From: Bacillota bacterium
Lineage (GTDB): Bacteria; Bacillota; Dethiobacteria; DTU022; UBA8154
DNA: 64,000 nucleotides
Reading direction: 5' to 3'
Assembly: GCA_012798755.1 (NCBI GenBank)
Contig: JAAZMP010000098.1
Location: 89,016 to 153,015 of the forward strand
In this document: positions 39,953 through 56,106 of the stretch, one piece after another
Layout: each line of letters opens with the position of its first letter
Position numbering within the stretch: the stretch's first letter is position 1
Notes under the pieces: generated by a model
Databases searched by the model: none
What the model was told of the DNA's origin: nothing
What the model saw: only the letters and a program-made list of their open reading frames with translations
Translations under genes and position numbers: made by a program

Positions 39953-40414
39953 TTACTCATTTAGGAAAATTTTAACGGTCGCACTGCCTTGGGCTACCAT
40001 TTCATTTTCACAATAAATACGGGCCTGTCCAAAGGTTACCGTCCCCCGACAGTGTATTATTTCTCCTTCTGCCACGACGACTCCCCCGGTTACAGCTTTG
40101 AAATAATTCACCTTCAGTTCCAAAGTGGCAATTCCTTTGACCTCTTTTTTGCTCAACAAAGCACTTCCTAAAGCAGCATCTACTAAGGAAGAAATTACTC
40201 CCCCATGTAAAGTTCCCATAGGGTTTACCAATTTTTCGTTTAAGGCAAGGGTCAGCCGGCAATGGGGATAAATGGCTTTTTCTACCTTTATTCCTAAAAG
40301 TTCTAAAAAGGGTGAAGGCGTTATGCTTTTGGTTTTATCCATAAATTGTCGACTCCTGGTATATTTAGATATTTTTCGACTTAATTCGTCAAGTCCCTTC
40401 TCTTTCTGCAACAA
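39953..40414 (-). CDS. PaaI-family hotdog-fold acyl-CoA thioesterase
   Basis: 153 aa with a NPMGTLHGGVISSLVDAALG motif typical of PaaI/4HBT-II thioesterases. Confidence 0.8.
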   Translation of the reverse strand: MLQKEKGLDELSRKISKYTRSRQFMDKTKSITPSPFLELLGIKVEKAIYPHCRLTLALNEKLVNPMGTLHGGVISSLVDAALGSALLSKKEVKGIATLELKVNYFKAVTGGVVVAEGEIIHCRGTVTFGQARIYCENEMVAQGSATVKIFLNE

Positions 40415-40442
40415 GCCGTCTATCAGGATAAATATAAAATAC

Positions 40443-40880
40443 TTATTTTACTATTAGTACTGAATTTTTGGCACAATGGGCAACCCTGTTGCTTACACTG
40501 CCCAATAACAGTTCTTTTACACCTCCAAGCCCTCTGCTTCCCATAACAATAAAATCAAACCTGCCTTCTTCAGCAATCTGGCAGATTAATTCCGCCGGGT
40601 GCCCAGATTTAAAAACTGTGTTTACCTCCAGTCCCTGTTTGTTGAATAGATCCTTCACCTTTTCTAAAACTTCTTTAGCCGCATTTTCCGCCCTTTCCTG
40701 GAAATTTTGTTGTACCAAAACAAGGTGCTCAGTAGCCATACCTTCATGATAAAAAGGTATATCCTGGACAACAGATAGGGCAGTAACATCAGCATCCATG
40801 CTTTTCGCCAATTTGATTGTTTTATTTACAGCTTTAAAAGAATTATCAGAACCATCAACAGCCAGCAATATTTTAAACAT
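40443..40880 (-). CDS. Universal stress protein (UspA family)
   Basis: 145 aa with ILLAVDGS...VMGSRGLGG...AHCAKNSVLIV motifs. Confidence 0.85.
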   Translation of the reverse strand: MFKILLAVDGSDNSFKAVNKTIKLAKSMDADVTALSVVQDIPFYHEGMATEHLVLVQQNFQERAENAAKEVLEKVKDLFNKQGLEVNTVFKSGHPAELICQIAEEGRFDFIVMGSRGLGGVKELLLGSVSNRVAHCAKNSVLIVK

Positions 40881-41025
40881 TGTAATACCCCCAATTTTTC
40901 AAATTTCCAGGAATCGTCCCTTGTAATATTCTTTTTTTTGATTTTAAAATCCTTTCTATCTTGAAATATAAATTTTTAGCAGCCTTGCAAAGGTATTTTT
41001 TTGTTTCTTTCAATCATAGATTGCA

Positions 41026-41568
41026 TCAGTTGTCCACAATTTTTTGCAGGGAATTTTTATAAACAGCCAAATCCTTTGCTCCAAAAAGAACAAACCGGAC
41101 CAGTTTTGGTTTAGCATGTTCCTCCAAAAACTTGATTACGGTTCTTATGGATATTTCGGCTGCTTCTTCTAAAGGATAGCCAAAAATCCCCGTACTGATT
41201 GCCGGGAAGGAAATACTATTCAGATCATGTTCTACGGCCAGGGAAAGGCTGTTAAAATAACAGTTTTCCAGATCCTTAGCGTTCTGGGGTGTATTGTCGT
41301 ATACAGGGCCCACCGTATGAACCACGAAGCGAGCCGCTAAATTATAACCGGAAGTTATTTTAGCCTCCCCCGTTTCACATCCACCCAGCTTTTTGCATTC
41401 TTCCCAAAGCCCCGGCCCGGCGGCCTTATGTATTGCACCGGCCACCCCGCCACCAGGGGCAAGTTTTTTGTTGGCAGCATTGACAATGGCATCCGTTTGT
41501 TGCTTTGTTATATCGCCTTTAACTATTTCCAACGTGCAATCCCCTATTTTGTAACCTGTTTTCCCCAA
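41026..41568 (-). CDS. Macro domain protein (O-acetyl-ADP-ribose deacetylase / ADP-ribose binding, YmdB-like)
   Basis: 180 aa with VNAANKKLAPGGGVAGAIHKAAG and a C-terminal ISTGIFGYP motif. Confidence 0.85.
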   Translation of the reverse strand: MGKTGYKIGDCTLEIVKGDITKQQTDAIVNAANKKLAPGGGVAGAIHKAAGPGLWEECKKLGGCETGEAKITSGYNLAARFVVHTVGPVYDNTPQNAKDLENCYFNSLSLAVEHDLNSISFPAISTGIFGYPLEEAAEISIRTVIKFLEEHAKPKLVRFVLFGAKDLAVYKNSLQKIVDN

Positions 41569-41643
41569 ATTGGTTTTCTCCTTTCAAATTTTTTATTTTG
41601 CCCTACTATAGATATTTTATAATCAAACGTTGATTTTACCCAA

Positions 41644-43020
41644 CTAAATCACCAGATCTTCATTAAGATGACTGCAGTTGGTAGCTATAGCATTCATGGC
41701 GGCAGCGTTTATTGGATAGGCAATAGGTGATGGTGAAACCAAAGGATGTGTTGCTGCTTGGAAAGTGTTAAGTTCAGTTGCCGTAGTATCTTTTTGAATA
41801 GCTAGACTTAAAATGTTATTAATTTCAGAAACCGTATCTCCACCGGAAATTTGGGCTCCAAGGATAATACCGGAGCACTTGGAAAATATCAATTTTATGT
41901 TAATTTCCTGGGCACCGGGCAAAGTGCCAGGGTGACGATCCATAGTTTTAAATTCACCGACCATAAGGCTGAAACCCTCTTGTTTTGCCCTGGTTTCTGT
42001 AAGACCGGCCGCTGCGAATGTTTTGCCTGTAATTTTCGTAGAAAACGTGCTAATTGTACCTTTGTTGGCACGTATCAACCTTAACTGAAAGGCATTGCTG
42101 CCTGCTACCTTAGCTTCCATTGCTGCAGTTGAAGCTAAAAGCAACGGTACGTCTTTCCCAGTGAAAAAACATTTCTTTTCCGCGCAGTCACCTACGGCAA
42201 AAATGTCAGGATCGCTGGTTCTCATATATTGATCAACTATGATAGCACCCTTAGTATTTATTTTTATACCACATTCTTTTGCTAAGTCACCATTGGGATT
42301 CACTCCCAATCCCAAGATTACCATGTCTGCGGGAACAACCTGGCCATTTTCCACTTCAACGGCTCTCACAGATTTTTCGCCCGTTATTTTTTTTACCTTG
42401 GTGTTTGTCATCACACTGATTCCTTTAGCGGATAAAAGGGACTCAATATCATCCGTATATTTTTTGTCAAAGGCCTGCCACAAACAGGAATCAGCCATTT
42501 CGATTAACGCAACTTCCTTGTCCAATTCCCTGATTTGTTCCGCAAATTCTACCCCGATGAATCCCCCTCCGATTACAACAACATTCTGAGCAGATTCTAA
42601 TTTATTAAAGATTTTACCAAGATGCTCTTCATCTTTCATTACCGGAAACACGTTATCAAGATCATGGCCCGGAATGAATGTGGGGATTATAGGTAGTGAA
42701 CCGGTAGCAATAACCAATTTTTTATAACTAAAAACCCCACTTTTCTTTGTTGTTACCGTTTTCTGTTCCTTATTTATTTTTAGTGCACTGTCAATAACTA
42801 AGTTGATATTGGCATTATGCAACACGGCATCCGGAATAATATTCTTCTTCAAATCCCGCAAGGTGCCATAAATGTATGGAATACCGCATGGCACCATAAC
42901 CGTTTCGGTTTCGCGGATCAAGGTAATTTCAAGATCGTCCCCATAAGATTTCCGCGCCATCGTGGCAGCCAGGATCCCACCTGCACTTCCCCCAATTACC
43001 AGCAGATCCGTTTTTTTCAT
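41644..43020 (-). CDS. FAD-dependent pyridine nucleotide-disulfide oxidoreductase (CoA-disulfide reductase / NADH oxidase family)
   Basis: 458 aa with a GGSAGG FAD motif, a redox Cys in VPCGIPY, and a second Rossmann motif (VVVIGGGFIG). Confidence 0.75.
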   Translation of the reverse strand: MKKTDLLVIGGSAGGILAATMARKSYGDDLEITLIRETETVMVPCGIPYIYGTLRDLKKNIIPDAVLHNANINLVIDSALKINKEQKTVTTKKSGVFSYKKLVIATGSLPIIPTFIPGHDLDNVFPVMKDEEHLGKIFNKLESAQNVVVIGGGFIGVEFAEQIRELDKEVALIEMADSCLWQAFDKKYTDDIESLLSAKGISVMTNTKVKKITGEKSVRAVEVENGQVVPADMVILGLGVNPNGDLAKECGIKINTKGAIIVDQYMRTSDPDIFAVGDCAEKKCFFTGKDVPLLLASTAAMEAKVAGSNAFQLRLIRANKGTISTFSTKITGKTFAAAGLTETRAKQEGFSLMVGEFKTMDRHPGTLPGAQEINIKLIFSKCSGIILGAQISGGDTVSEINNILSLAIQKDTTATELNTFQAATHPLVSPSPIAYPINAAAMNAIATNCSHLNEDLVI

Positions 43021-43058
43021 TTTACTCCTCCTTATGTACTTTTGTAAAAAAATTTCCC

Positions 43059-43625
43059 TTATTTCAGTATTCCGTTCAAAATGATATCGGAATATAATCT
43101 TGCTATTTCCTCCGGCTTCAAACGTCCGTCAGGTTTATACCAATGATACAGCCAATTACACATACCGATTATGGCATAGACAGTGGGGAGGATATCGTTA
43201 TCCTTAAAAATGTTTTTCTTTATGCCTTCTTCTAAAACACTTGCGATTTTGTTTTCATATTTTCTTTCCCTGATATTAATAGCTTTAAGATTTTCAGGAA
43301 GCAAATTGGCCTTTTCGCTAAAGAATATGGCAATGTTAGGCATTTCATCAATAAAAGCCATTATTTGATTATAAATAATTTTATGGATCAGTTGTTCAAC
43401 GGGCATTTTTTGCCCCATTAAATTTTTCAAACGCAATTCGGCTGTTGTCATAGCGTGATCGAATATTTCATAAAGAATTTCCTCCTTGCTCGAAACATAA
43501 TAGTATAAAGCAGCCTTGGTAACATTTAAAGCATCTGCAATATCTTGAACGCTTGTCGCGGAAAAACTTTTTTCATTGAACAAACGGACAGCTGTTTGAA
43601 TTATCTTTTGTTTGGTTAAACTCAT
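43059..43625 (-). CDS. TetR/AcrR family transcriptional regulator
   Basis: N-terminal HTH FSATSVQDIADALNVTKAALYYYVSSKEEIL. An SD (GGAGGG) precedes the ATG. Confidence 0.9.
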   Translation of the reverse strand: MSLTKQKIIQTAVRLFNEKSFSATSVQDIADALNVTKAALYYYVSSKEEILYEIFDHAMTTAELRLKNLMGQKMPVEQLIHKIIYNQIMAFIDEMPNIAIFFSEKANLLPENLKAINIRERKYENKIASVLEEGIKKNIFKDNDILPTVYAIIGMCNWLYHWYKPDGRLKPEEIARLYSDIILNGILK

Positions 43626-43675
43626 CTTTACCCTCCAGTATCCCTGTACGGTTTTGTACCAGATATAGTTTTTCT

Positions 43676-43689
43676 ATAGTGTACACTAT
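43676..43689. promoter_or_regulatory. Perfect 14-bp palindrome ATAGTGTACACTAT, a candidate TetR operator
   Basis: An exact inverted repeat about 50 nt upstream of the tetR start codon, in the tetR 5' region. Confidence 0.55.
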
Positions 43690-43807
43690 TCCCCCTATTA
43701 CGACAACTATTCTAACACATAGAAATACCTTCCCTTCAAACAGAAAGGTTGTTGTAGTTTACACCTCCCGGTGTATTAACAATACCAAGGAATTTGAACA
43801 TAATAAT

Positions 43808-43846
43808 TTGTAGGCACTGGCGGTATTATCCTCAGTGCCTACAAAT
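43808..43846 (-). terminator. Long perfect hairpin (13-bp stem TTTGTAGGCACTG / CAGTGCCTACAAA with a 13-nt loop), probable terminator of the ligase-transporter operon
   Basis: Seen directly. On the minus strand it is followed by AUUAUUAUG. It lies between the small ORF and tetR. Confidence 0.5.
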
Positions 43847-43955
43847 CCTGTGAAACATTTTAGAAGCTTATGCCAAGGTTCTACATTGATGAAAATAATA
43901 AAAGTGCTATATTATAGAGTTGTTTTTGGCTGTCATGTAGTTAATCTATCAATTC

Positions 43956-44141
43956 TCAGTCGGTATATTGTTCATACTCAAGATCAAGATCGCTGGTTAG
44001 CTGCCACACAACGCTAAGTGCCCGACGTGCATTATAATAAATAGCAGGAAAGTCTTCCACTTCACATAATTCCTTTAGTAAATTATAGACATGCTGAACC
44101 TTTTCTTTTACCAATTCGGGATTTTTTTGATAGGACAACAC
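43956..44141 (-). CDS. Small acidic hypothetical protein (61 aa) immediately downstream of the CoA ligase
   Basis: The ORF starts 16 nt after the ligase stop and has no recognisable domain. The call rests on tight operon placement only. Confidence 0.3.
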   Translation of the reverse strand: MLSYQKNPELVKEKVQHVYNLLKELCEVEDFPAIYYNARRALSVVWQLTSDLDLEYEQYTD

Positions 44142-44157
44142 TTTAAAACCCCCTAAA

Positions 44158-45492
44158 TTATTTTTTAGTGCGCAAATCTCGGAACCTACGTGATTTTAGT
44201 TCATACTTTGGCAGAGCCCCTGGTTCCGCTATTTCAACATTGAAGGATAAACGATGCGCTTCATACAGTTTTTTTGATACTATTTTTTGCAAGTGTTGAT
44301 TTCTCCTGGGGAAATATTCCGGGAATAGTTCTATTTTTACTTTGACTTGATCAATGTCTTTTTCTTTGTAAATTATTATTTGAAATTCGTCAACTTCTTT
44401 AAATTCCCTGACTATGTCTTCAATGGCTGAGGGAAAAATATTTACTCCCCTCACATGTTTCATATCATCTGCTCTTCCTATTATCCCACCTTTGAAAAGA
44501 TCGAATGTTCTTCCACAGGAACAAAAACTGCTTTCAACACGTTCTACCAAATCGCCGGTTCGGTAGCGAATAAGTGGAAAGGCCCCCCTTCCAAAGGAAG
44601 TGATCACTAGTTCCCCCCGTTGACCGTAAGATAAATTATCTGCTGTCAAAGGATCGATAACTTCTTGTATATAATGGTCCTCTATAATATGGATCCCATC
44701 ACTTTGTTCGTTGCATTCGTAACAGGTTATGCCTCCTGTTTCAGACATTCCGGTAAAATCAGCTACTTTGGCGCCCCAAGTATCTTCCAACATTTTTTTC
44801 GTCCCAGGAATACTGCCCCCAGGTTCACCGGAATTAACTATATATTTTACTTTAGAGTCTTGGGCCAAATCAATACCCATTTCCCCGGCTACTTGAGCAA
44901 GCCTTATAGCATAGGTTGGTGTTGTGATAAGAGTCGTCACTTCCAACTCCATTATTTTATCGATACGTTCCTCACTGGACATTCCCCCTGTAGGTATAGT
45001 CAATGCACCAATTTTTTCACAAGCATAATGCGCAAGCCAAAAACCAATAAAAGTTCCATAACCTGAAGCTATCATGCATATATCTGTATCCCTGATGCCA
45101 AAAGCGTATAATCCATAACACCACATCTCCGACCCCCATTCCCAATCTTTCCTTCCATCCAAAATGCGTAAAGGGCCTTTTCCTGATGTTCCAGAGGTTT
45201 GGTGATACCTCACTGCTTGTTTATCATTAACGGTCATGAATTCCCCAAAAAGGGGATTTTCCAGCTGGGACTCACTTAACTCTTCCCTTGTCAAAAAGGG
45301 TATTTTTTTGATGTCTTCCAGGGATTTAATATCGCCTGGTTCAAAACCTACTGCATCAAGTTTCCCCTTCCATAAAGGGCTATTGTTATAAGCCCAGTCC
45401 ACAAGTACTTTTAACTTTTTTAGTTGGATTTTTCCTAAACCGTCCCTCGACATTAATTCCGTTTTTGGATTCCAATAATTTTGATTCTTCAT
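44158..45492 (-). CDS. Phenylacetate-CoA ligase (PaaK) family adenylate-forming enzyme (coenzyme F390 synthetase-like)
   Basis: 444 aa. An N-terminal PaaK-type domain (GKIQLKKLKVLVDWAYNNSPLWKGKL...IKKIPFLTREEL) is followed by an AMP-binding core (TSGTSGKGP) and a C-terminal domain. Confidence 0.8.
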   Translation of the reverse strand: MKNQNYWNPKTELMSRDGLGKIQLKKLKVLVDWAYNNSPLWKGKLDAVGFEPGDIKSLEDIKKIPFLTREELSESQLENPLFGEFMTVNDKQAVRYHQTSGTSGKGPLRILDGRKDWEWGSEMWCYGLYAFGIRDTDICMIASGYGTFIGFWLAHYACEKIGALTIPTGGMSSEERIDKIMELEVTTLITTPTYAIRLAQVAGEMGIDLAQDSKVKYIVNSGEPGGSIPGTKKMLEDTWGAKVADFTGMSETGGITCYECNEQSDGIHIIEDHYIQEVIDPLTADNLSYGQRGELVITSFGRGAFPLIRYRTGDLVERVESSFCSCGRTFDLFKGGIIGRADDMKHVRGVNIFPSAIEDIVREFKEVDEFQIIIYKEKDIDQVKVKIELFPEYFPRRNQHLQKIVSKKLYEAHRLSFNVEIAEPGALPKYELKSRRFRDLRTKK

Positions 45493-45539
45493 GATCTCCC
45501 TCCCCAGATCAGATGTTTTTTAACACTTCCGAAAACTAT

Positions 45540-47039
45540 TTAGCTTTCGTACACTTCATCAAACACCGTGAATATATTTTCAGTATTTAGCTTTGGTGCC
45601 GGTCTGGTAATCAGTGATACTGCTACCATTAGCACTACAGAAAGTATAAACCCGGGCGCAGCATAATGTGTGCCAAATGTAGTCCATTCCGGCAACACAT
45701 GAAAGGCCCACAGGGCAACACTGGTAACTCCTATAATCGAGGAAACAATAACCCCCCATTTGCTGGCCCGTTTCCAGTAAAGACAACCGAAATACGCGGG
45801 AAAAAGGGTGGCAAATCCCGCAAAAGAAAATTCCGCTATAGCCAGGATAGTAGCTGGTCTTACTAAAACCAACAAATATACTACTATTGCCACAATTAAA
45901 ATAAATATCCGGCTTAAATAGCTATCCTGTTTAGACGAAAGTTTTGTACCTCCTTTTTCTAAAATTGGTTTAACTATATCATCAGAAAAAATGGAAGATA
46001 CCACTAAAAGCATTCCATGCAAAGAAGAAAGAATAGCTGCCAAAATACCTGCCCCCAGGAGCCCGGTCATCCAAGGAGGCGCATATATTTCAGCTAACAT
46101 TGGCATTACATCGTCAACTGATGCACCAACTAAGCCAGGCACACCTACGCTTCCCCATACACCCAGGGTTATGGCCATAAACATAAATATCGTCATAAGG
46201 ATTGGGTATATAACCACATTCAGTTGGATAGCACGAGGAGATTCAGCAGACATGTTTCTTACTAGTATGTGGGGTACAACTCCATTGGAAATGCCTGTGC
46301 ACAACAAACTAAAGGGTATCCAATAGCCCAAGCGTTGCACTCCTTTGCCTCCCAAGGAAAGCATTTCATCCGGTAATTTTGCGATGATTTGTGTGCCTTT
46401 TCCCAACGCGTTGTATACTATGAACATCATGAAAACCAAGACACCGATCATCAAGATTCCCTGGAAAATATTTGTCCAGGCAGTTCCACGCATTCCTCCT
46501 GAATATGCTATATAGGTACTTGCCAATAAAATGACAAGGGCTCCCAACCAATAAGGAATTATTCCTTTAGTCACCGCTGATATGGCAATCCCCGAACCTA
46601 TTCCGCAGATTAAAATATAGGGTATGGTTAACAATATTTGCAAAGCTGCAACAACAAATCTTGGGGAATCATTTCCAAACCTGCTTTCACCCAAAAATTG
46701 TACTGGAGTTACAAAATTGTATCTCGCTGCAAGAAGCCATGCACGATATCCAATCAGGTAAAAACCAGCAGCAGATGCAAAATTGGCCATACCCTGTAAG
46801 TACCCTAGAGTTGAAAATCCTAATTCATACGCAGCGCCGGGTGCCCCCAGCATACCAAAAGCAGTAATTTGTGATCCGAAAATTGCAAAAACAAGTGCAA
46901 TAAAGCCTAAAGATCTGTTGGCAGTAAAAAGATCCGAAGGTGTAACCTTCATAACACGGGATGCCCAATAGCCAATCAGAATTGTGATCGCTAAATACAA
47001 AATAAGAATAGTGGTTGTAAGTAAGACGTTAACAGGCAT
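45540..47039 (-). CDS. Sodium:solute symporter (SSS family) permease
   Basis: 499 aa with about 13 TM helices and SSS family sequence features. It is paired with an upstream DUF4212 gene. Confidence 0.8.
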   Translation of the reverse strand: MPVNVLLTTTILILYLAITILIGYWASRVMKVTPSDLFTANRSLGFIALVFAIFGSQITAFGMLGAPGAAYELGFSTLGYLQGMANFASAAGFYLIGYRAWLLAARYNFVTPVQFLGESRFGNDSPRFVVAALQILLTIPYILICGIGSGIAISAVTKGIIPYWLGALVILLASTYIAYSGGMRGTAWTNIFQGILMIGVLVFMMFIVYNALGKGTQIIAKLPDEMLSLGGKGVQRLGYWIPFSLLCTGISNGVVPHILVRNMSAESPRAIQLNVVIYPILMTIFMFMAITLGVWGSVGVPGLVGASVDDVMPMLAEIYAPPWMTGLLGAGILAAILSSLHGMLLVVSSIFSDDIVKPILEKGGTKLSSKQDSYLSRIFILIVAIVVYLLVLVRPATILAIAEFSFAGFATLFPAYFGCLYWKRASKWGVIVSSIIGVTSVALWAFHVLPEWTTFGTHYAAPGFILSVVLMVAVSLITRPAPKLNTENIFTVFDEVYES

Positions 47040-47073
47040 TGGCTGTTCCTCCTGTTTTTCAATTCCTTTTCAT

Positions 47074-47340
47074 TTACTTTTTTAACGTTTTATATTCCTT
47101 CGGCAAAGGCCAACTAAATATTTGGATAATATAGTTAAAAGCCGAATAGCCTACAGATATTAACAAGGTACGATATAAATACTCCCCGGGTATCCAACCA
47201 AAATAAATGTTTTGTTTTCCCCAATTCCAAAAGTCAACATGCAAGATCAGCGCAAAAACAAACATTATCATAATAAAAATCAATGAACCACTGGTGGTTT
47301 TAAAATAATTTGTGAGACTTTTCACCTTGCCGCTCAACAT
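47074..47340 (-). CDS. DUF4212 small membrane protein (putative SSS transporter small subunit)
   Basis: 88 aa with 2 TM helices and the conserved FWNWG...YFGW pattern of DUF4212. It always accompanies an SSS permease. Confidence 0.7.
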   Translation of the reverse strand: MLSGKVKSLTNYFKTTSGSLIFIMIMFVFALILHVDFWNWGKQNIYFGWIPGEYLYRTLLISVGYSAFNYIIQIFSWPLPKEYKTLKK

Positions 47341-47572
47341 CAGTTCGCACCCCCTTTCTTTAGTGTTAAATTCTTTGCCGGTGTAAAAATTACGACAAGA
47401 CTTTTTGAAACTTTAGCTGTTTATGTAACATTTTTATAATTTAGATAAATATGGTTTGGAATATCTAGTGAAAATGAGCAAAAATTATAGTGTGAAGGAA
47501 ACTCGAAGTAAAATTGCAGCAATGTTTGTATGCAAATGCATTACCTATCAAAAGCGCTAATCGCCCGTTCTT

Positions 47573-47595
47573 TACTTACCGCCTAGTAAATTATA
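47573..47595 (-). promoter_or_regulatory. Putative promoter -10 (TATAAT, 47590..47595) plus TACT-N8-AGTA operator for the DUF4212-SSS-ligase operon
   Basis: Minus strand reads ttatcaagtgaacctatctaatTATAATtTACTaggcggtaAGTA. It has the same -10/operator geometry as the other two island promoters. Confidence 0.45.
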
Positions 47596-47654
47596 AATTA
47601 GATAGGTTCACTTGATAATACATTCACAAGGCGGACATATTTATAATAGTTACC

Positions 47655-49214
47655 CTATTTTCGTTTCCACAGTTCAAAGGCGCCTTTCGGACTTTTGAAG
47701 TGGAAACTTGAAACTTTGGGCTGCAGGCTCAACTTATCTATAAGTTCCAGTATTGGCATATCACGTGTGGAGAATTTCATAAATTTGCTGCCGCGCTCCT
47801 CAATGGCTTTGTACATGGTATCTATTTCGTCTTGACCCTTCATAAGATAGCGTAATATGAACTCTTCATCGGAAAGATGAACGGCATCAAGTTGCTTTCT
47901 TACCTCTTTAACAGTTAAGTACTGTGTCACCTTTTTATGATGTTCCCATTCTTTTTGCAGCTCCTTTGCCCTAGGCATGCTCAAAAATTTGTCCTTTAAG
48001 TTTGGTTCCATTTCCAAATATCCGGAATCCTCTGAAAAACAACCTATAGCAACTTTAAGCATTTCATCAACAACCGCCTTATAACGCTCACCCGTAGCTA
48101 CATTAAGTGCGGCTTGGGTGCAAACAAATTGCGAATAAGGAGTAATCATATGCGGATGGCCGGTTTCTTCGCATATTTTTATTACCTCTTCTGCAACTTC
48201 GTCTATCCTGCCTGTAAGATTTAATTCCTTTAGCTGGTGCACTGTATTAGATATAACGCCACCGGGGATTTTGTGTTTGTAGAGATACAAATTATAGCGC
48301 GTGGGCCCGAAATAAGTCGGCATAGGATAGTCCCCCACTGCCCTTACAGCATCTTTTGGGCCCACCTGTTTCGCCATAGCATATATACACTCAGAAACTC
48401 TTTGGATCCGTTCCAAGTCAAGATTTATTTCCAGGCCAAGGTGTTTACAATTATCCGCGACGTTAAAAACACTTGGCTGCGCCGTCCCCTCAGCCATAGG
48501 AGGGGTTGCAACATGGAAGATCCGGCATCCCATTTTCATCGCTTCCACATAAACAACATCGGCCATGCCTGTGGTACAGTGACTATGAAGTTCAATAGGT
48601 AAACCCTTTGAATGTTTTTGAACAATCGGCAACACTTTTCTAATTGAGTCCACGTCCAGCAATCCCCCGGCATCCTTTATATACATAGAAGTGGGTTCGT
48701 AAGCGGCCATAAGTTTTGTTTTGTCTTCAAAATAGCCCTCGGCCTGGTGTCTCGGGGATATGTAATAACAAACAGCAAAATTGATGCCTAGACCCAATTT
48801 TTTAATCAAGGGGATAAACCATTCGTAACGTTCTGTACCATAGATGTTGCCCATGACCTGGACACGTTGCAGTGCTCCATAATTTACAAGCAGCGTTAAA
48901 AACAATTCTATTATTGAACGGGGAGTGTCCCACATATCCCAGGGATTAATGCCCGGTTCGTACATTATACCTTTTTTAGTTTTAGTTTGACCGAACATTC
49001 TTACCATTTCCCAAATATCTTCCCTTAAGTCACGGGTATACTTTTTAAAATTTGGAGTAACGTAGGGAGCATCAATGTAAGCGTAACCAGCTTTATCAAT
49101 ATCTTCGAGTATTTCTTTCATCATACCGGCCGGCATGCCTGATGCCCAGTTGCTCTGGGCTCCATCACGCATTGTAGTATCAACAAAATTGACAATCTTT
49201 TTCATAATTTTCAC
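47655..49214 (-). CDS. PycB/OadA-like carboxyltransferase (HMGL-like DRE-TIM barrel; transcarboxylase 5S-type) without a biotinyl domain
   Basis: N-terminal VDTTMRDGAQS and metal-site LHSHCTTGMA motifs match the pyruvate carboxylase subunit B / oxaloacetate decarboxylase alpha carboxyltransferase domain. The 519-aa protein ends ...FELWKRK with no AMKM biotin attachment motif. Confidence 0.65.
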   Translation of the reverse strand: MKIMKKIVNFVDTTMRDGAQSNWASGMPAGMMKEILEDIDKAGYAYIDAPYVTPNFKKYTRDLREDIWEMVRMFGQTKTKKGIMYEPGINPWDMWDTPRSIIELFLTLLVNYGALQRVQVMGNIYGTERYEWFIPLIKKLGLGINFAVCYYISPRHQAEGYFEDKTKLMAAYEPTSMYIKDAGGLLDVDSIRKVLPIVQKHSKGLPIELHSHCTTGMADVVYVEAMKMGCRIFHVATPPMAEGTAQPSVFNVADNCKHLGLEINLDLERIQRVSECIYAMAKQVGPKDAVRAVGDYPMPTYFGPTRYNLYLYKHKIPGGVISNTVHQLKELNLTGRIDEVAEEVIKICEETGHPHMITPYSQFVCTQAALNVATGERYKAVVDEMLKVAIGCFSEDSGYLEMEPNLKDKFLSMPRAKELQKEWEHHKKVTQYLTVKEVRKQLDAVHLSDEEFILRYLMKGQDEIDTMYKAIEERGSKFMKFSTRDMPILELIDKLSLQPKVSSFHFKSPKGAFELWKRK

Positions 49215-49310
49215 CTCAGCATTTTTTATAAGTTTTACTGAATTTATTTATGCTCATCATTAACTATTAAGAATATACTTATAACATCTAAAGGATAGCC
49301 CTTACTAACT

Positions 49311-49348
49311 GTTTAGTAGATTATAAAACAAACTTACCCCTTTGTCAA
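49311..49348 (-). promoter_or_regulatory. Consensus sigma-A promoter (GTATTGACAAA-17-TATAAT) with an overlapping TACTAAACAGTTAGTA inverted repeat, upstream of the carboxyltransferase gene
   Basis: -35 at 49343..49348 and -10 at 49320..49325. The inverted repeat TACT-N8-AGTA at 49303..49318 starts 1 nt after the -10. Confidence 0.6.
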
Positions 49349-49426
49349 TACATTCTCAAATATTTATATATTATACCTATGCAAACTATTATGTGTAGAG
49401 CAACTAATCTGCAGATAAATTTTAAT

Positions 49427-49451
49427 CAAAAAAAACACCCCGTGAGGGGTG
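49427..49451 (-). terminator. Rho-independent terminator of the molybdoenzyme operon
   Basis: Minus strand reads CACCCCUCACGGGGUG followed by UUUUUUUUGAUU, about 80 nt after the large-subunit stop. Confidence 0.8.
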
Positions 49452-49527
49452 ACCAAATTAAAATATAAGAGTTTTGCTTTTACATACACCTTGCTAAAGG
49501 AACTTTTAACTACTTAAAATAATGGTG

Positions 49528-51891
49528 CTATTCTTTTTTATCCATAAAGGCTTGGAGCACTCTTTCAGGGGTTAAGGGAAGTTCTTTTATCCTTAGACCG
49601 GTTGCATCATAGACAGCATTTGCTATTGCTGCTATTGCCGCCGAGCGGGAAGATTCACCTACTTCCTTGGCCCCAAATGGTCCTTTTGGATCATTGGTAA
49701 TTATATGGTTAACATTTATTTCCTCGGGTATATCCAACGTTCCGGGGATCTTATAATCAGTCAATGTAGGATTGACTATTCGTCCATTTTCAATAATAAT
49801 TTGCTCAAATAAAGCATCCCCAAGCCCTTGGACGGCCTGGCTTTCTACTTGGCCCTCTACAGCCAGCGGGTTTATAGGGTACCCACAGTCCTCCGCACTG
49901 GTAAGTTTGAGCACTTTAACTTTTCCTGTTTCTTTGTCCACCTCAACTTCTGCAATGATGATGGAAAAAGTGTAGGCATTGGTCCAGCGCCCTGTTCCTT
50001 TAGAAAGACTTGGGTAAAACTCAACTTCCGGCACAGGTTTGCAGAACCCTTTTCCCAAGATAGGATCGCCGTTGCGCGCCTGAATGCTGTTTATCATCAA
50101 TTCAGCAAAGGTCATCGCCTTTTCCGGATCACTTTTGGCATAAACTTTGCGATCCTTAAGCACCAGATCATCTTCCTTAACTTCCAGCCACCCTGATGCA
50201 AAATCCAGAATTTGTTCCCTTACGTTAACAGCAGCTTTCCTGACAGCCTCCCCGGTAACGAAAATACCGCCGCTGAGCCAGTTTCCATGATCAATGGGGC
50301 ACAACTCTGAATCCGCAGAAACCAAAATTATGTCGTCTAAACCCACACCTAGTTCTTCAGCAGCTATTTGTGACATAGCAGTATCCGATCCCTGCCCAAA
50401 TTCAATAGCACCGCAAAACAAGGTAAAAGTTCCATCAGGATTAAGTTTCATTGTTGCTGCGGCTCCAAAGGGATAGTACTGGGCACCATTAAACATAGCA
50501 GCAACCCCAATACCGATGCCGCGATTTTTGTCCCTGCCTTTGCCTCGTTTTTCCTTCCAACCACTTACCTCCATAGCCTTTTGGATACCTTCCGCAAGCC
50601 CGCAACTATGCAAAGTATCCCCGTTAGGTAGAACATCGCCTTTTTTTCTAAAATTTTTGAGTCTAAGTTCTGCCGGATCCAGGCCCAAATCTTCAGCAAT
50701 TTGATCTAGTTGAGATTCGACAGAAAAAGACATCTGGGGTGAACCGTGGCCCCTTCTGGGCATACAGATCGACTTATTGGTATAAACCCCGATCCCTTCG
50801 TGCTTGGCATTTGGTATGTTATATATCGGGCGTCGGAAACCATGTGTAAGAAAAAGAACAACGGGAGAACTACCCCGGTAAGCCCCGGGATCATCAATAG
50901 CTTTAATTTCCTGGGCCATAATAGTGCCGTCTTTTTTGACGCCTGTTTTTACATTTATTATAAAACGGTGGCTTAACCGGCACGCTATAAAAACTTCTTC
51001 ACGCGTCAATGATATTTTTACTGGTCGCAGTGTCATCCTGGAAAGAAAAGCCGCCAAAAACTCATAGGAAAATGGATCGATTTTACCGCCAAAAGCGCCA
51101 CCTACATAGGCTTTACGAACTCTGACCCTGCTTATAGGAACATCGAGAGCCCGGGCCAACCAGTAGCGTTTTACTTCATAGCCCATATGTGTAAGCCAAA
51201 CATCAAATTTTTGGAAGGACGGATCCCAGTTTGCCAGCGCCACATGGGGTTCCATGGCCATATGCGATGTAGATGGAATATAAAATTTATCTTCCCGGAT
51301 ATACTCTGATTCTTTAAAACCTTTTTCAATATCGCCGTGCCCTTGTTGGCTTATGGCACAAATATTGTTTTCAGCTTTATAGGATCTGGCTTTTCTGGCC
51401 ACCCCCCAATCTTCCCAAGCGCAAGGCCTGTCAGGGACAATTTCATCGTGTATTTCTGGTGCACCATCCTGCATCGCTTCTTCCGGATCAAAAACAGCTG
51501 GCAGCTCCTCATATTCTACCTTAATCAAAGATAAAGCCTCATCAGCTATATCTTTGCTGGTTGCAGCTACAGCAGCTACTTCTTCACCAATATAGCGTAC
51601 TTTGTCTGTTGCCAAAACTAACTGATCAGCCGGATATCTTGGAGTGTCCACAAATCCATATCTTACCGGCCCGATATCTTTGGCTGTAATTACTGCCTTG
51701 ACCCCGGGCAATTTTTTAGCTTCGCTGGTATCAATATTTATAATTTTGGCATGGGGGTAAGGACTGCGGAGAATTCTACCCCATAGCATATTAGGAAGTT
51801 CCATATCATAAGTAAATTTTGCTCGTCCCGTAGCCTTAGCTATTCCATCCACCCTGGTTAAAGACTTGCCAACTACAGAATGTTTTTTCAT
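49528..51891 (-). CDS. Xanthine dehydrogenase / aldehyde oxidoreductase-family molybdopterin-binding large subunit (CoxL-like)
   Basis: 787 aa with the a/b hammerhead N-terminus (GKSLTRVDGIAKATGRAKFTYD) and Mo-cofactor domains. Confidence 0.85.
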   Translation of the reverse strand: MKKHSVVGKSLTRVDGIAKATGRAKFTYDMELPNMLWGRILRSPYPHAKIINIDTSEAKKLPGVKAVITAKDIGPVRYGFVDTPRYPADQLVLATDKVRYIGEEVAAVAATSKDIADEALSLIKVEYEELPAVFDPEEAMQDGAPEIHDEIVPDRPCAWEDWGVARKARSYKAENNICAISQQGHGDIEKGFKESEYIREDKFYIPSTSHMAMEPHVALANWDPSFQKFDVWLTHMGYEVKRYWLARALDVPISRVRVRKAYVGGAFGGKIDPFSYEFLAAFLSRMTLRPVKISLTREEVFIACRLSHRFIINVKTGVKKDGTIMAQEIKAIDDPGAYRGSSPVVLFLTHGFRRPIYNIPNAKHEGIGVYTNKSICMPRRGHGSPQMSFSVESQLDQIAEDLGLDPAELRLKNFRKKGDVLPNGDTLHSCGLAEGIQKAMEVSGWKEKRGKGRDKNRGIGIGVAAMFNGAQYYPFGAAATMKLNPDGTFTLFCGAIEFGQGSDTAMSQIAAEELGVGLDDIILVSADSELCPIDHGNWLSGGIFVTGEAVRKAAVNVREQILDFASGWLEVKEDDLVLKDRKVYAKSDPEKAMTFAELMINSIQARNGDPILGKGFCKPVPEVEFYPSLSKGTGRWTNAYTFSIIIAEVEVDKETGKVKVLKLTSAEDCGYPINPLAVEGQVESQAVQGLGDALFEQIIIENGRIVNPTLTDYKIPGTLDIPEEINVNHIITNDPKGPFGAKEVGESSRSAAIAAIANAVYDATGLRIKELPLTPERVLQAFMDKKE

Positions 51892-51895
51892 TGTG

Positions 51896-52414
51896 TTACT
51901 TGCCTCCTTTTGTTGCTGTTTTATTTTCCTGCATCATTTCCTGGCTGGCTGCAAGTACCGCATCTAAAATTCTAACATAACCGGTACACCGGCAAAGCAC
52001 TCCCTCCATTGCTTCCTTTGTTTCCATTCTTGTTGGTTTGGGGTTTTTTTCCAGAAAGGATTTAGCTGCCAAGATCATCCCCGGGGTGCAAAAACCGCAC
52101 TGAATGGCCCCATGATCTACAAAAGCCTTTTGAAGCGGGTGTAATTTTTCCCCTTCGGCAACACCTTCGATAGTTAATATATCTTTGCCATTTGCATCTA
52201 CAGCTAACACCAAACAGGAGTTGACCGGTTTGCCATCAAGAATTACTAAGCAGTTTCCACATTCTCCGGTACCGCAGGATTCTTTAGCGCCTGTCAGCCC
52301 GGCCTCTTCTCTGATAACTTCCACCAAGGTTCTCCAGGGTTCTACATTGAATTCATAATGTTCTCCATTAATTGTTAGTTCAATTCGTTTTTTCATGAAA
52401 TTTATACCCCCCAT
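51896..52414 (-). CDS. Mo-hydroxylase [2Fe-2S] small subunit (CoxS-like)
   Basis: A plant-type cluster (CGTGECGNC) and a second cluster (CGFCTPG...CRCTGY). The start is probably the internal MKKRIELTING at about 52396. Confidence 0.9.
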   Translation of the reverse strand: MGGINFMKKRIELTINGEHYEFNVEPWRTLVEVIREEAGLTGAKESCGTGECGNCLVILDGKPVNSCLVLAVDANGKDILTIEGVAEGEKLHPLQKAFVDHGAIQCGFCTPGMILAAKSFLEKNPKPTRMETKEAMEGVLCRCTGYVRILDAVLAASQEMMQENKTATKGGK

Positions 52415-52499
52415 ATAATGTTTTTAAAACCAGTTAAAACTTTCGGCACCTTCCCCTTGAGAAAGATGGAACAAAAGATTTTTTGGTTAAAAGGTTTTG

Positions 52500-53381
52500 T
52501 TAGATTGTTGCTTGTTTTATAGCCCGTATAGTTAAAACCCGTACCAATTCCCGTTTATAGTCGGGGCGGGTACGAGGCTTGGCTTCTTTGGAAGCAGCCA
52601 GTGCTGCTTTTTCTATGAGTTCCTGATCAAGAGTCTTTCCTTTGATTGTATTTTCCGCTTTGTGGGCACGCATAGGGGTAGGAGCTGTGGCCCCCAAAAC
52701 AATTTTGGCATCAACAACTTTAGCACGTTTTGCATCCATTGTAATAACAGTGCCAACACTGACCACAGCTACATCGGTAACCGACCTTTCGGGGTTCTTT
52801 AAATACACCCCAGCACTGTTGTCAGGTAAAACGGGCACCTGTATTTCTGTAACCATTTCACCATTTTGAAGAGCATTGACTTTCGAATCCACAAAAAAAT
52901 CCTCAACAAGCATAGTCCTGCTTCCTTCGACCCCTTGAATTTTTACCTTTGCCCCCAAGCAAATTAATAGCGGTGCTGAATCGGCTGCAGGCAAAGCATT
53001 GCAAAGATTGCCGGCCATGGTTGCCACATTGCGAGTTGTAGGCAATCCGGATTTTTCGGCAGCCTCAGCAACCAAAGGGAATTTTTCCTTAACTATTTTT
53101 GCGTCTTTTATTTCATTAAGAGTAGCCAGTGCACCTATCTGCAAAAGGCCTTCACCATTGTAACGGATATAATTAAGATCGGGAATCGTTTTGATGTTCA
53201 CTAAATATTTGGGACTTATTTCCCGCTTTTTCATGGAAACCAAAAGATCTGTTCCCCCAGCCAGGACCATAGCATCACCTTTGTACTTATGAAGAAGCGA
53301 ACAAGCTTCTTCAATTGTCTTTGGTTCAAAATATTCGAACTTTGGCAAATTCATTAAGTACCTCAAATCCGATGAATTCAT
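52500..53381 (-). CDS. Mo-hydroxylase FAD-binding medium subunit (CoxM-like)
   Basis: 293 aa with an FAD-binding PCMH-type domain (AGGTDLL...). The gene order medium-small-large is the coxMSL type. Confidence 0.85.
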   Translation of the reverse strand: MNSSDLRYLMNLPKFEYFEPKTIEEACSLLHKYKGDAMVLAGGTDLLVSMKKREISPKYLVNIKTIPDLNYIRYNGEGLLQIGALATLNEIKDAKIVKEKFPLVAEAAEKSGLPTTRNVATMAGNLCNALPAADSAPLLICLGAKVKIQGVEGSRTMLVEDFFVDSKVNALQNGEMVTEIQVPVLPDNSAGVYLKNPERSVTDVAVVSVGTVITMDAKRAKVVDAKIVLGATAPTPMRAHKAENTIKGKTLDQELIEKAALAASKEAKPRTRPDYKRELVRVLTIRAIKQATI

Positions 53382-53429
53382 TTCTCACAGCTCCTTTTCA
53401 AGTAATTTTTTAGAAACAATCTACTGTCC

Positions 53430-53468
53430 GTTTAGTAAAATCATATTAGAAATAATCCTTTTTGTCAA
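53430..53468 (-). promoter_or_regulatory. Consensus sigma-A promoter (GTATTGACAAA-17-TATGAT) with an overlapping TACTAAACGGACAGTA inverted repeat, upstream of the Mo-hydroxylase operon
   Basis: -35 at 53463..53468 and -10 at 53440..53445. TACT-N8-AGTA begins 2 nt after the -10. Confidence 0.6.
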
Positions 53469-53507
53469 TACCTTTAAAAGATTTTCTGAATTCTTCCTGG
53501 CAAAATT

Positions 53508-53535
53508 GGAAAAAATGCGCGCTAACGCGCGCTTA
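53508..53535 (-). terminator. Rho-independent terminator downstream of icd
   Basis: A GCGCGC/GCGCGC stem with a uaac loop, followed on the minus strand by AUUUUUUCC. Confidence 0.75.
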
Positions 53536-53671
53536 TGAAACTTGGGTTCGGGAAAAACGCACCATTTTCTCTTGTCATAACAGACAAGCCGAAAACGAAC
53601 TAGCTGTCAAATTTCTTAAAGATTCCCGCCAAGCATTATGATGAAGCTTTTCTATATGTTTATACCATATC

Positions 53672-54667
53672 TTACAATTTTTCTATAATCGCTTGTGTCA
53701 TCTGGGAAGTTGTTGCATCTCCACCCAGATCATAGGTAACAACTTTCCCCTCTGCTATTACGGCAGCCAGCGCTGTTTGTATCTTTTGTGCAATTTCTTC
53801 CTCTCCTATGTGCTGCAGCAGCATAACTGCCGAAAGGATAGTAGCCGTAGGGTTTACCCTATCTTGTCCGGCATATTTCGGTGCACTGCCGTGCACGGGT
53901 TCAAAAATAGCTATTTCTTCCCCAAAATTGGCACCGGGAGCAACCCCCAGGCCTCCAACCAGACCGGCACAAATATCGGAAATAATATCACCATAAAGAT
54001 TCAGCGTGACCATGACATCATAAAGTTCCGGCTTTACAACCAACTGCATGGACATATTATCAACAATGCGGTCTTCAAATTCTATATCAGGGTAATCTTT
54101 GGAAATTTCCCTGGCTACGGACAGGAAAAGGCCATCGGTATACTTCATAATGTTAGCCTTATGTACAGCAGTTACTTTCTTACGCTCATATTTACGCGCA
54201 TATTCGAAAGCAAACCGAACGATGCGCTCCGATCCTTTACGCGTAATAATTTTTATACTTTCCGCAGCATCATCACCAACCATATGCTCTATGCCGGCAT
54301 ATAGATCTTCTGTATTTTCTCTTACGATGACCAGATCGATGTTTTCATAACGGCTGTTAATACCTTTATAAGATCTGGTTGGCCTTAAATTAGCATATAG
54401 ATCAAGTTCCCTGCGCAGGGCAACATTTACACTGCGAAATCCTTCGCCTATGGGGGTGGTAAGCGGGCCTTTAAGAGCTACCTTGTTTTGCCTGATGGAT
54501 TCCAGGACATTTTCCGGCAGTACGCTGCCAACCCTTTCATAGGCTTTCAGACCTGCTTCTCTGATTTCCCAATTAATAGGCACCGCAGCGGCCTTAAAGA
54601 TCTCCTTTACAGAAGAAGTAAGTTCTGGTCCCGTTCCATCTCCGGGTATTAAAGTAACTTGGTACAT
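53672..54667 (-). CDS. icd: NAD(P)-dependent isocitrate / isopropylmalate dehydrogenase family enzyme (short, roughly 330-aa type)
   Basis: [16 protein letters not shown]-terminus and the NLYGDIISD motif. The tracked ORF starts 19 codons too early. Confidence 0.8.
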
Positions 54668-54748
54668 ATATATATCCTCCTGTCTCTTGGTTTGAACAAT
54701 GACTGGTTTTAGGGGCATTAACATTCGTTCCAGCTTATACCGTAAGTG

Positions 54749-55306
54749 TTATTTTGTTTGATAAATTTGTTGATAGCGCTTATAAGTCTTATCTACCTTT
54801 AGAACAAAAAACCGAGTTTCCGGGAAAGGGATATTGCCCAGTTCGTTTTTGGTACCATCCCACAGACCACTTTTTAGCCATCTGCTTACGTAGGTTCTCC
54901 CACCATTATAAGCTGCCAGGGCAGCATATTTATTACCATCGAATTGGCAAAAAAGATCTTGCAAATACCATGTCCCAATCGTGATATTTACCAGGGGATC
55001 GTATAACTTTTCTTCAGCAAAAGCTTCCATTCCGATTTGTTCGGCTACCCATAAACCCGTTTCGGGCATTATTTGCATCAATCCCAGGGCTCCTTTGGAG
55101 GATTTGGCTTTTTTGTCAAAACCACTTTCCACCCGCACAACAGCTGCAATAAAAAGGGGTTCAAGTCCATTTTTATGAGCTTCTTGAGTAATAATTTCGC
55201 TATAATGAAAAGGATATACCAAACGAGCAACAAAATTAGCCCGGGTGATAAACAGATACAAAAACAATAAAAATATAGCCAGGTAAACAATTTTAGATGG
55301 CTTCAA
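54749..55306 (-). CDS. Lytic transglycosylase (SLT domain) with an N-terminal signal/anchor
   Basis: Catalytic ES motif (VRVESGF) and the KGALGLMQIMPETG motif. Confidence 0.85.
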   Translation of the reverse strand: MKPSKIVYLAIFLLFLYLFITRANFVARLVYPFHYSEIITQEAHKNGLEPLFIAAVVRVESGFDKKAKSSKGALGLMQIMPETGLWVAEQIGMEAFAEEKLYDPLVNITIGTWYLQDLFCQFDGNKYAALAAYNGGRTYVSRWLKSGLWDGTKNELGNIPFPETRFFVLKVDKTYKRYQQIYQTK

Positions 55307-55455
55307 AAGACAAACACACCTTCGACAATATTAAAGAATTTGTCTGTTTTAATTGCTCATGCCAGTTACCCCATTTTAGCATAGGGTACCATGTTGTTCA
55401 GGGGAAATGCCGCAGCTGAAGTTAGTAAAAACATAACCAACAAGAGTAAGTACTT

Positions 55456-56106
55456 TTATATTTTGATCCTTTTCAGTTTTTCCCATAACACATCTATTTG
55501 TTTTTCTAAAAATTCCTTTGTACAGGCATTGTATAAGACATAATCTGCCGCCCTTACTTTTATCTCTAGATCGAGCTGCGATTTGATGCGCCTAAGTGCC
55601 TCATCTTCTGACAATCCGTCCCTATCTTTGAGCCTTTGAATTTGATCTTCCCGGTCAGAGGCAACCACAATAATATAATCCACAGCATCTTCATATCCGG
55701 CTTCAAAAAGAAGCGGAATGTCCCATATTTGAATTTTATTGGGATGGAGCTTTTCTAATTCTTTGCTTCTGGTGTGAAGCAGTTCTTCTACACGGGGATG
55801 CACGATTTTGTTTAATTTTTCCAGGGCCTGGTTGTTGTTAAAAACTATACCGGCGATTTTCCGGCGGTTTAGGCTGCTGTCAGCAGTTAAAACATCCTCT
55901 CCCAACCAAGATACTATTTCTTTCCAGGCCGGCTTTTTCGGTTCTACCACTTCCTTGGCCAGTTGATCCACATCGAGCAACAATGCTCCTTTGGCAGTCA
56001 ACATCTGCGCGACAGTTGACTTCCCGCAAGCTATGCCACCGGTTAAACCCGCCCTGAACAATGTTTCATCTCCTTTTCCGTTGAATAGCATGGCGATCTC
56101 ATGCAT
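55456..56106 (-). CDS. coaE: Dephospho-CoA kinase
   Basis: GLTGGIACGKSTV P-loop. The tracked ORF (to 56193) over-extends into mutM. The start is probably one of the internal Met codons between 56091 and 56133. Confidence 0.85.
   Translation of the reverse strand: MHEIAMLFNGKGDETLFRAGLTGGIACGKSTVAQMLTAKGALLLDVDQLAKEVVEPKKPAWKEIVSWLGEDVLTADSSLNRRKIAGIVFNNNQALEKLNKIVHPRVEELLHTRSKELEKLHPNKIQIWDIPLLFEAGYEDAVDYIIVVASDREDQIQRLKDRDGLSEDEALRRIKSQLDLEIKVRAADYVLYNACTKEFLEKQIDVLWEKLKRIKI

Follow-up and report, generated by a model that had tools for sequence, protein, structure and literature searches.

The TetR-family repressors PfmR, from Thermus thermophilus HB8, and KstR2, from mycobacteria, respond to acyl-CoAs. 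The structure of PfmR (TTHB023) is available as PDB entry 3VPR (PMC10636190), and the consensus of its targets in vivo, 5'-TACCGACCGNTNGGTN-3', is quoted in a later study (PMC7022988). In Azoarcus sp. CIB, four promoters of the anaerobic 3-methylbenzoate cluster harbor palindromic operators for the TetR repressor MbdR; these operators overlap start sites or the -10/-35 elements, one of the promoters being an internal one for the CoA ligase, and the inducer is the aryl-CoA that this ligase produces (PMC4424350). PaaR of Thermus and Corynebacterium is also a TetR repressor, released by phenylacetyl-CoA (PMC4424350), while AibR of Myxococcus xanthus binds isovaleryl-CoA (PMC5389471). The stretch analyzed here, a 64-kb window of contig JAAZMP010000098.1 from a biogas-reactor metagenome-assembled genome (MAG) of a Bacillota (Firmicutes) bacterium, contains a catabolic island in which three promoters carry the palindrome TACT-N8-AGTA just past their -10 box (operators O1, O2 and O3; Table 1). 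These promoters head a molybdenum (Mo) hydroxylase operon, a carboxyltransferase-like gene, and an operon for a transporter and a PaaK-like CoA ligase, and the island also has a tetR gene. As judged by sequence comparison, O1-O3 are very probably the operators of this TetR repressor, which would act as the single switch of a small regulon.

The 64-kb window contains exactly three copies of TACT-N8-AGTA, as compared with a mean of 0.5 per window in shuffled sequences, of which 3 in 100 attain this number. The composite pattern TAT[AG]AT-N1-2-TACT-N8-AGTA is also observed three times, for an analytic expectation of 0.007 per window that assumes independent and identically distributed bases at the given composition. 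Changing the distance between the two half-sites to N6, N7, N9 or N10 returns 0-1 sites in the window, none of them at promoters, and scanning with the motif and with the matrix described below reports no other operator site in the ~50 kb of housekeeping DNA of the window. A repeat finder independently pairs the three sites as 21-26-nt repeats. The initial annotation had described a shared -10/operator architecture at these promoters, and this description holds: each copy starts 1-2 nt past a TATAAT or TATGAT box, itself placed behind a 17-bp spacer. The identical extended -35 context proposed for the first two promoters is likewise found, since GTATTGACAAA is common to P1 and P2 and present nowhere else in the window; both promoters also contain TACTAAAC, and their left operator halves are alike. 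In a neutral promoter scan of 14.5 kb (41000-55500), P2 and P1 are the two top sigma-70-type matches, and P3 is one of several matches at its level (10/12). The annotated genes of the region are all encoded on the minus strand, and the two best terminator-like hairpins of the scanned region sit just upstream of sites 1 and 2, which therefore head separate transcription units. A fourth candidate, TATAATTTACT at 44077, was rejected as it is non-palindromic and lies inside a 61-amino-acid (aa) small open reading frame (sORF). A literature search for the exact 16-mer found no matching paper.

The TetR protein has orthologues in metagenomic genomes, in a series graded from 87% down to ~50% identity. 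Every orthologous locus with enough sequence (L086, L088, L090, L092, L093, L094, L096, L172, L173 and L174) adjoins the M-S-L genes, encoding the FAD (MoM), 2Fe-2S (MoS) and Mo (MoL) subunits of the hydroxylase, and/or the ligase and sORF genes, in varied orders. M-S-L-tetR forms one operon in L088, L090, L092 and L094, while tetR precedes M-S-L in L093 and L172. The order is tetR-ligase-sORF-M-S-L in L096, and M-S-L, Mo-cofactor genes and tetR in L086. In L173 a TRAP transporter operon and ligase-sORF-M-S-L lie beside a divergent tetR, and in L174 the order is ligase-sORF-binding protein-M-S-L-ABC transporter-tetR. Wherever the upstream region of the orthologous operons is present, the palindrome lies just past a -10-like box, with the cross-genome consensus TACTAACCGGTTAGTA. 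In L088 the site before MoM has this very sequence, a perfect palindrome, and the equivalent site before MoM reads TACTAACCGGTCGGTA in L090 and TACTAAACGGTTAGTA in both L093 and L172. Two sites are present in L096, before the ligase gene (TACTAACCGGTTAATA) and before MoM (AATTAACCGGTTAGTT), and two in L173, before ligase-sORF-M-S-L (TACTAACCGTTTAGTA) and in the divergent region between dctP, of the TRAP transporter, and tetR (AACTAACCAGTCAGTA). In the closest relatives, L092 (MoL 90% and TetR 87% identical) and L094, tetR stands directly behind the Mo subunit gene, whereas the window has two more units between MoL and tetR, that of the carboxyltransferase and that of transporter, ligase and sORF, each with its own promoter and operator; the comparison illustrates how such a regulon grows.

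A position weight matrix was built from these eight foreign sites only, leaving aside those of the window. It ranks O2, O1 and O3 first to third in the 64 kb (23.0, 17.9 and 11.1 bits, respectively), the next match reaching 8.5 bits, while its maximum in 1.32 Mb of control loci is 14.6 bits. This control DNA (~1.3 Mb) comprises 79 carboxyltransferase-like loci retrieved by scanning 185,579 species genomes, the source MAG being absent from the matches. As an anchor for comparison the carboxyltransferase-like gene was discarded, as these 79 loci show unrelated contexts in which the cluster is never kept and the motif is not enriched. O3 departs from the cross-genome consensus at three positions, and in control DNA chance alone yields a score such as its own about once in 150 kb; the case for O3 rests on position and context. 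The placement of the inverted repeat and its recurrence at orthologous promoters agree with the early proposal of a repressor operator over the transcription start, and its conservation at these promoters in other genomes supports co-regulation of the three units as a small regulon. The same recurrence, together with the lack of sites in the housekeeping DNA, speaks against a mere discriminator sequence of strong promoters.

Two further inverted repeats were observed at orthologous loci. The short spacer between MoL and tetR in L092 (2740-2770) contains ATACTTTCCGGGATAAAAAGTAT, with TACT...AGTA arms, a CCGG core and an N13 spacing, and could represent a variant of the operator or one that has decayed. 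In L086 (~9890-9910) and L087, TTTACTATAAAATAGTAAA lies upstream of a tetR with 72% identity; this TACT-N7-AGTA repeat, one base shorter than the operator, could again be a variant, or else coincidental.

The TetR protein of the island comprises a TetR_N helix-turn-helix (HTH; PF00440, E 6e-15, residues 8-53) and a TetR_C_24 ligand/dimerisation domain (PF17932, E 3.4e-29), and its best solved relative is PfmR (3VPR, E 3.6e-34), with full-length similarity over residues 3-186. The two domains, the palindromic operator in promoters, the relatedness of the operator sequences and the cross-genome co-variation of helix and site are all features of the PfmR/KstR2-like branch that are observed here. 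A metagenome scan with the TetR alignment returned five close orthologues and 75 loci of distant homologues (30-40% identity). In 26 of these 75 distant loci, the 500 bp upstream of tetR contain a match of 12 bits or more, usually the sole match in the locus. Whether the motif is present depends on the recognition helix. In the [ST]KAALY[HY]Y class, to which the window helix TKAALYYY belongs, a match of 11 bits or more is seen in 13 of the 14 loci whose upstream sequence extends over 300 bp or more. In the QKGSLYHY class, one member of which reads QKASLYHY, TACCAAACGGTCGGTA is present in all eight loci, and the motif is found in none of the about 30 loci with LKGSLYYY, SRVTLYRY or SKVTLY helices. 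The promoter layout is alike in distant loci, as exemplified by L101 (TTGACA-17-TATAAT-5-TACCAAACGGTCGGTA), and there the -10 region is overlapped or replaced by the motif, or else the motif is located 70-310 bp upstream of tetR. Short of an experiment, the co-variation of helix and site provides the strongest argument that the TetR protein itself would read the motif. The distant regulators adjoin acyl-CoA mutase operons and acyl-CoA synthetase genes. In L119, L138, L147, L160 and L165, TetR homologues of ~250 aa (36-39% identity) are divergent from methylmalonyl-CoA-mutase-like/B12-binding/MeaB operons with the same operator, and a second, weaker repeat is often seen in this group ~8 nt downstream of the operator, e.g., TTACTAAATAGTTAGTAAaatttattAACTAGTTAATAA in L160.

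The regulator of the three units is most probably the neighbouring PfmR-like TetR and not a second factor. The initial annotation had suggested a second regulator encoded elsewhere, on the grounds that the motif differs from a palindrome close to tetR. If this were so, the sites would be operators of another protein, for instance of the GntR/FadR type, and the local TetR would bind ATAGTGTACACTAT near its own gene. ATAGTGTACACTAT is a perfect 14-bp palindrome (43676-43689) that follows a TGnTAGAAT-type extended -10 and precedes the start codon of tetR, in a promoter region devoid of TACT-N8-AGTA, to which it is unrelated, and the Bacillus subtilis GntR operator ATACTTGTATACAAGTAT has the same TACT-N8-AGTA geometry as O1-O3. 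However, GntR-family sites typically display a GT-N-AC core, while the centre of the sites described here is A/C-C-G-G, and no GntR domain is found in the 48 window ORFs scanned or among the genes called in the orthologous loci. TetR is the only transcription factor of the island, with Spo0A as the sole other one among these 48 ORFs. Furthermore, ATAGTGTACACTAT is conserved upstream of tetR in none of the orthologous loci, whereas TACT-N8-AGTA accompanies the TetR orthologue across differing gene orders and transporters, is found upstream of tetR in distant homologues according to the class of their recognition helix, and matches the PfmR operator (PMC7022988). A regulator encoded elsewhere is improbable in view of this evidence.

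The conserved sequence might also function as RNA, forming a stem-loop at the 5' end of the three mRNAs through which their stability or translation is controlled, a role that would agree with sites lying at or near each transcript 5' end and able to fold into a short hairpin. These hairpins are nevertheless of low stability (-2.6 to -3.4 kcal/mol), two of them cannot be told apart from shuffles, and it is the sequence, in both arms and in the CCGG centre, that is kept across genomes, not the pairing through compensatory changes. The positions of the motif in the distant loci speak against this role as well, no Rfam family is reported in 40000-56000 at E up to 1, and an RNA element is very unlikely. 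Equally hard to credit is a chance likeness or a promoter-duplication remnant, i.e., a strong-promoter cassette copied within the island and devoid of any regulatory role: P1 and P2 do have GTATTGACAAA and TACTAAAC in common and the repeat finder does pair the sites, but the 17-bp spacers of P1 and P2 are unlike each other while the functional elements are kept, the palindrome recurs in unrelated metagenomic genomes, at promoters whose arrangement is independent, and the composite pattern is far above its expectation of 0.007.

Several points weigh against O1-O3 being operators of the island TetR. The link between TetR and the motif is correlative. The tetR promoter of the window carries no copy of the motif (best match below 8.5 bits) and no degenerate operator was found in it, so autoregulation through the shared operator, a frequent but non-defining trait of the PfmR/KstR2-like branch, is absent or different in this genome, whereas most relatives have a route for it, either through tetR being inside the M-S-L operon or through a site upstream of tetR. 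O3 is weak by its score and lies ~230 nt upstream of the first gene of the transporter operon, in a leader (47341-47572) that returns no Rfam match and contains a second promoter-like site, TTTACT-17-TATAAT (47512-47484), with no operator. The source genome was scanned for sites over the 64-kb window, so that the regulon as described here is that of this window. Finally, the direction of the ligand response should not be assumed, as AibR binds DNA only with acyl-CoA bound (PMC5389471).

If we assume that TetR is the repressor of the three units, a TetR dimer would occupy the palindrome from roughly -5 to +12 and block RNA polymerase at the three sigma-A-type promoters, presumably by preventing open-complex formation or promoter escape. 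The transporter and PaaK-like ligase operon, the 4-hydroxybenzoyl-CoA-reductase-like operon and the carboxyltransferase-like gene would be held off together. In the presence of the substrate, the CoA thioester made by the ligase would bind to TetR's C-terminal domain and release the repressor; this effector and this direction are proposed because relatives of TetR sense acyl-CoAs. Among the products of the putative regulon are a CoA ligase and an enzyme for which the best match has an aryl-CoA as its substrate. Once substrate is taken up and activated at a basal level, the whole gene set would be switched on, which is the usual arrangement.

Table 1. Promoters, operators, terminators and genes of the catabolic island, in window coordinates. 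Fractions are matches to the promoter consensus; bits are scores with the external matrix.
Feature	Position	Strand	Sequence or elements	Remarks
Promoter P1	53440..53468	-	GTATTGACAAA-17-bp spacer-TATGAT-tt-TACTAAACGGACAGTA (site 1, coding strand)	TTGACA 53468-53463, TATGAT 53445-53440; 11/12
Operator O1	53422..53437	.	TACTAAACGGACAGTA (minus-strand reading)	2 nt past the -10 of the Mo-hydroxylase M-S-L promoter; 17.9 bits, 2nd in window
Promoter P2	49320..49348	-	GTATTGACAAA-17-bp spacer-TATAAT-c-TACTAAACAGTTAGTA (site 2, coding strand)	TTGACA and TATAAT; perfect consensus, 12/12
Operator O2	49303..49318	.	TACTAAACAGTTAGTA	1 nt past the -10 of the carboxyltransferase-like gene promoter; 23.0 bits, 1st in window
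Promoter P3	47590..47618	-	GTATTATCAAG-17-bp spacer-TATAAT-t-TACTAGGCGGTAAGTA (site 3, coding strand)	TTATCA and TATAAT; 10/12
Operator O3	47573..47588	.	TACTAGGCGGTAAGTA	1 nt past the -10 of the small membrane protein-SSS-ligase-sORF operon promoter; 11.1 bits, 3rd in window; weakest
Intrinsic terminator	53517..53532	-		After the isocitrate dehydrogenase gene; isolates P1
Intrinsic terminator	49436..49451	-		After the Mo subunit gene; isolates P2
Mo-hydroxylase operon	49528..53381	-		4-hydroxybenzoyl-CoA-reductase-like; behind P1/O1
FAD subunit (MoM)	52500-53381	-		Xanthine-dehydrogenase-family Mo enzyme
2Fe-2S subunit (MoS)	51896-52414	-
Mo subunit (MoL)	49528-51891	-
Carboxyltransferase-like gene	47655..49205	-		HMGL-like and PYC_OADA, no biotin domain; monocistronic, behind P2/O2
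Uptake/activation operon	43956..47340	-		Behind P3/O3
88-aa hydrophobic ORF	47074-47340	-		Small membrane protein
SSS transporter	45540-47039	-
PaaK-like CoA ligase	44158-45492	-		Closest to phenylacetate-CoA ligases
61-aa sORF	43956-44141	-		Conserved
TetR-family regulator	43059..43625	-		188 aa, TetR_N and TetR_C_24; proposed binder of O1-O3
CoA-disulfide-reductase-like flavoprotein	41644-43020	-

The island is flanked by housekeeping genes, with rib genes, polA, mutM, coaE and icd on one side and yceD-plsX-fab-rnc-smc-ftsY-ffh through to spo0A on the other. The best PDB match of the Mo subunit is the alpha subunit of 4-hydroxybenzoyl-CoA reductase (1RM6_A, E 5e-131, against 1.7e-86 for the next), and its best NCBIfam match is TIGR03194 (649 bits), below the equivalog cut-off of 994.55. 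HcrB, the FAD-binding counterpart in that reductase, comprises ~320 aa and harbors an extra [4Fe-4S] insertion. The FAD subunit of the island, with 293 residues, is best matched by XdhB-type models (219 bits), only its N-terminal part being matched by TIGR03195 (114 bits; cut-off 404.55), and most of the HcrB-specific match is absent as judged with the NCBIfam models; versions of 328-338 aa exist in some orthologous clusters. The Mo enzyme is therefore to be regarded as 4-hydroxybenzoyl-CoA-reductase-like and not as a demonstrated 4-hydroxybenzoyl-CoA reductase, the alpha subunit falling below the equivalog cut-off and the FAD subunit being XdhB-like.

Most gene labels of the initial annotation, namely the Mo-hydroxylase M, S and L subunits, the biotin-less carboxyltransferase, the SSS transporter and the ligase, were retained, but not that of DUF4212. 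The 88-aa hydrophobic ORF thus labelled has no Pfam match to DUF4212 even at E up to 10 and none in NCBIfam, and returns a weak DctQ-like match (E 0.004), although it holds the position equivalent to DUF4212, the small subunit of VC_2705-type Na+/solute symporters. The 61-aa ORF right after the PaaK-like ligase is kept together with the ligase in L096 (~3296), L173 (~4835) and L174 (~1345) at 52-71% identity, and yields a faint DUF6052 match and nothing else; it seems to encode a small protein that serves this type of ligase as a dedicated partner. Past this ORF, a long hairpin, TTTGTAGGCACTG...CAGTGCCTACAAA (43800-43850, minus strand), probably terminates the transporter-ligase operon and separates it from tetR. 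A paralogue of the carboxyltransferase-like protein, at 84% identity, is encoded on short contigs (L001-L003) apparently of the same MAG (locus-tag prefix GX996, P0002), with no operator motif upstream of its gene. A distant PaaK-like ligase (29%) and a 34-aa ORF come before this paralogue and a separate 181-aa biotin-carrier protein comes after it, which suggests that the biotin-less protein of the window may borrow a carrier encoded elsewhere.

While the regulatory principle is textbook, the aromatic-acid/CoA pathway is uncharacterised, and the main value of the finding lies in the handle it gives on an aryl-CoA pathway of this kind. An unannotated MAG island would become a testable unit, with one repressor, three operators, a transporter, a CoA ligase and its small partner, a Mo enzyme and a carboxyltransferase. 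The cross-genome matrix would provide a transferable operator model for predicting the regulons of the PfmR-like TetR branch in uncultured anaerobes, and this model could help to find the substrate of the pathway because the effector should be the ligase product. More tentatively, and with the odds leaning slightly against it, the pairing of a [ST]KAALY[HY]Y/QKGSLYHY helix with a TAC(T/C)(A/G)A-N4-T(T/C)(A/G)GTA site could have been kept from Thermus PfmR via Firmicutes to GC-rich metagenomic lineages, while the ligand domain and the targets diversified (aryl-CoA Mo-hydroxylases as opposed to acyl-CoA mutase operons); the regulon described here would then have recently captured the biotin-less carboxyltransferase and a new transporter by way of promoter and operator cassettes. 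In this case, an undescribed anaerobic aryl-CoA pathway would bring together a PaaK-like ligase, its conserved 61-aa partner, a 4-hydroxybenzoyl-CoA-reductase-like enzyme without the Fe-S insertion of HcrB, and a carboxyltransferase.

Among the known systems, KstR2 is a detectable relative of the window TetR (E 5e-16). The operators of PaaR (CNAACGNNCGTTNG) and KstR2 (AnCAAGnnCTTGnT) are unlike the sites described here, and the target pathways of both regulators differ from that of the island. MbdR (PDB 4UDS) is a distant relative (E 3e-06) that shares the logic of the island, one TetR acting at several promoters of one catabolic cluster, but its operator is an 18-bp ATAC-N10-GTAT and it autoregulates through this same operator, whereas the tetR promoter of the window is devoid of the motif. 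AibR (PDB 5K7F/5K7H/5K7Z), the third-best solved relative (E 5e-24), has an operator oligonucleotide, GCTACCTACCGGTCGGTAGGT, with a TACCGGTCGGTA core in common with the sites described here (PMC5389471). However, AibR controls a biosynthetic operon and binds DNA only in its acyl-CoA-bound form (PMC5389471), a polarity that would be odd for a catabolic regulon. PfmR represses genes of phenylacetate and fatty-acid metabolism, while the targets proposed here are the Mo-hydroxylase, the PaaK-like ligase and the carboxyltransferase. A later in-vitro consensus for PfmR, obtained by REPSA and of the CTGACCGATCGGTCAG type, is centred differently, its half-site spacing being of uncertain equivalence (PMC7022988). 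The DNA-binding regions of the two proteins are near-identical (TKAALYYY in the window and SKAALYHH in PfmR; ATSVQDIADALNVTKAALYYYVSSKEEILYEI and ATSVQDLAQALGLSKAALYHHFGSKEEILYEI, respectively), and the PfmR operator is, like the sites of the window, a 16-bp pseudo-palindrome located in promoter regions, with TACCGA arms in place of the TACTAA arms of this low-GC lineage. Placed in register with TACTAACCGGTTAGTA, the PfmR consensus TACCGACCGNTNGGTN agrees at 10 of its 13 specified positions, and the L090 site and the TACCAAACGGTCGGTA of nine high-GC loci fit it in full, in the form in which it is quoted in PMC7022988.

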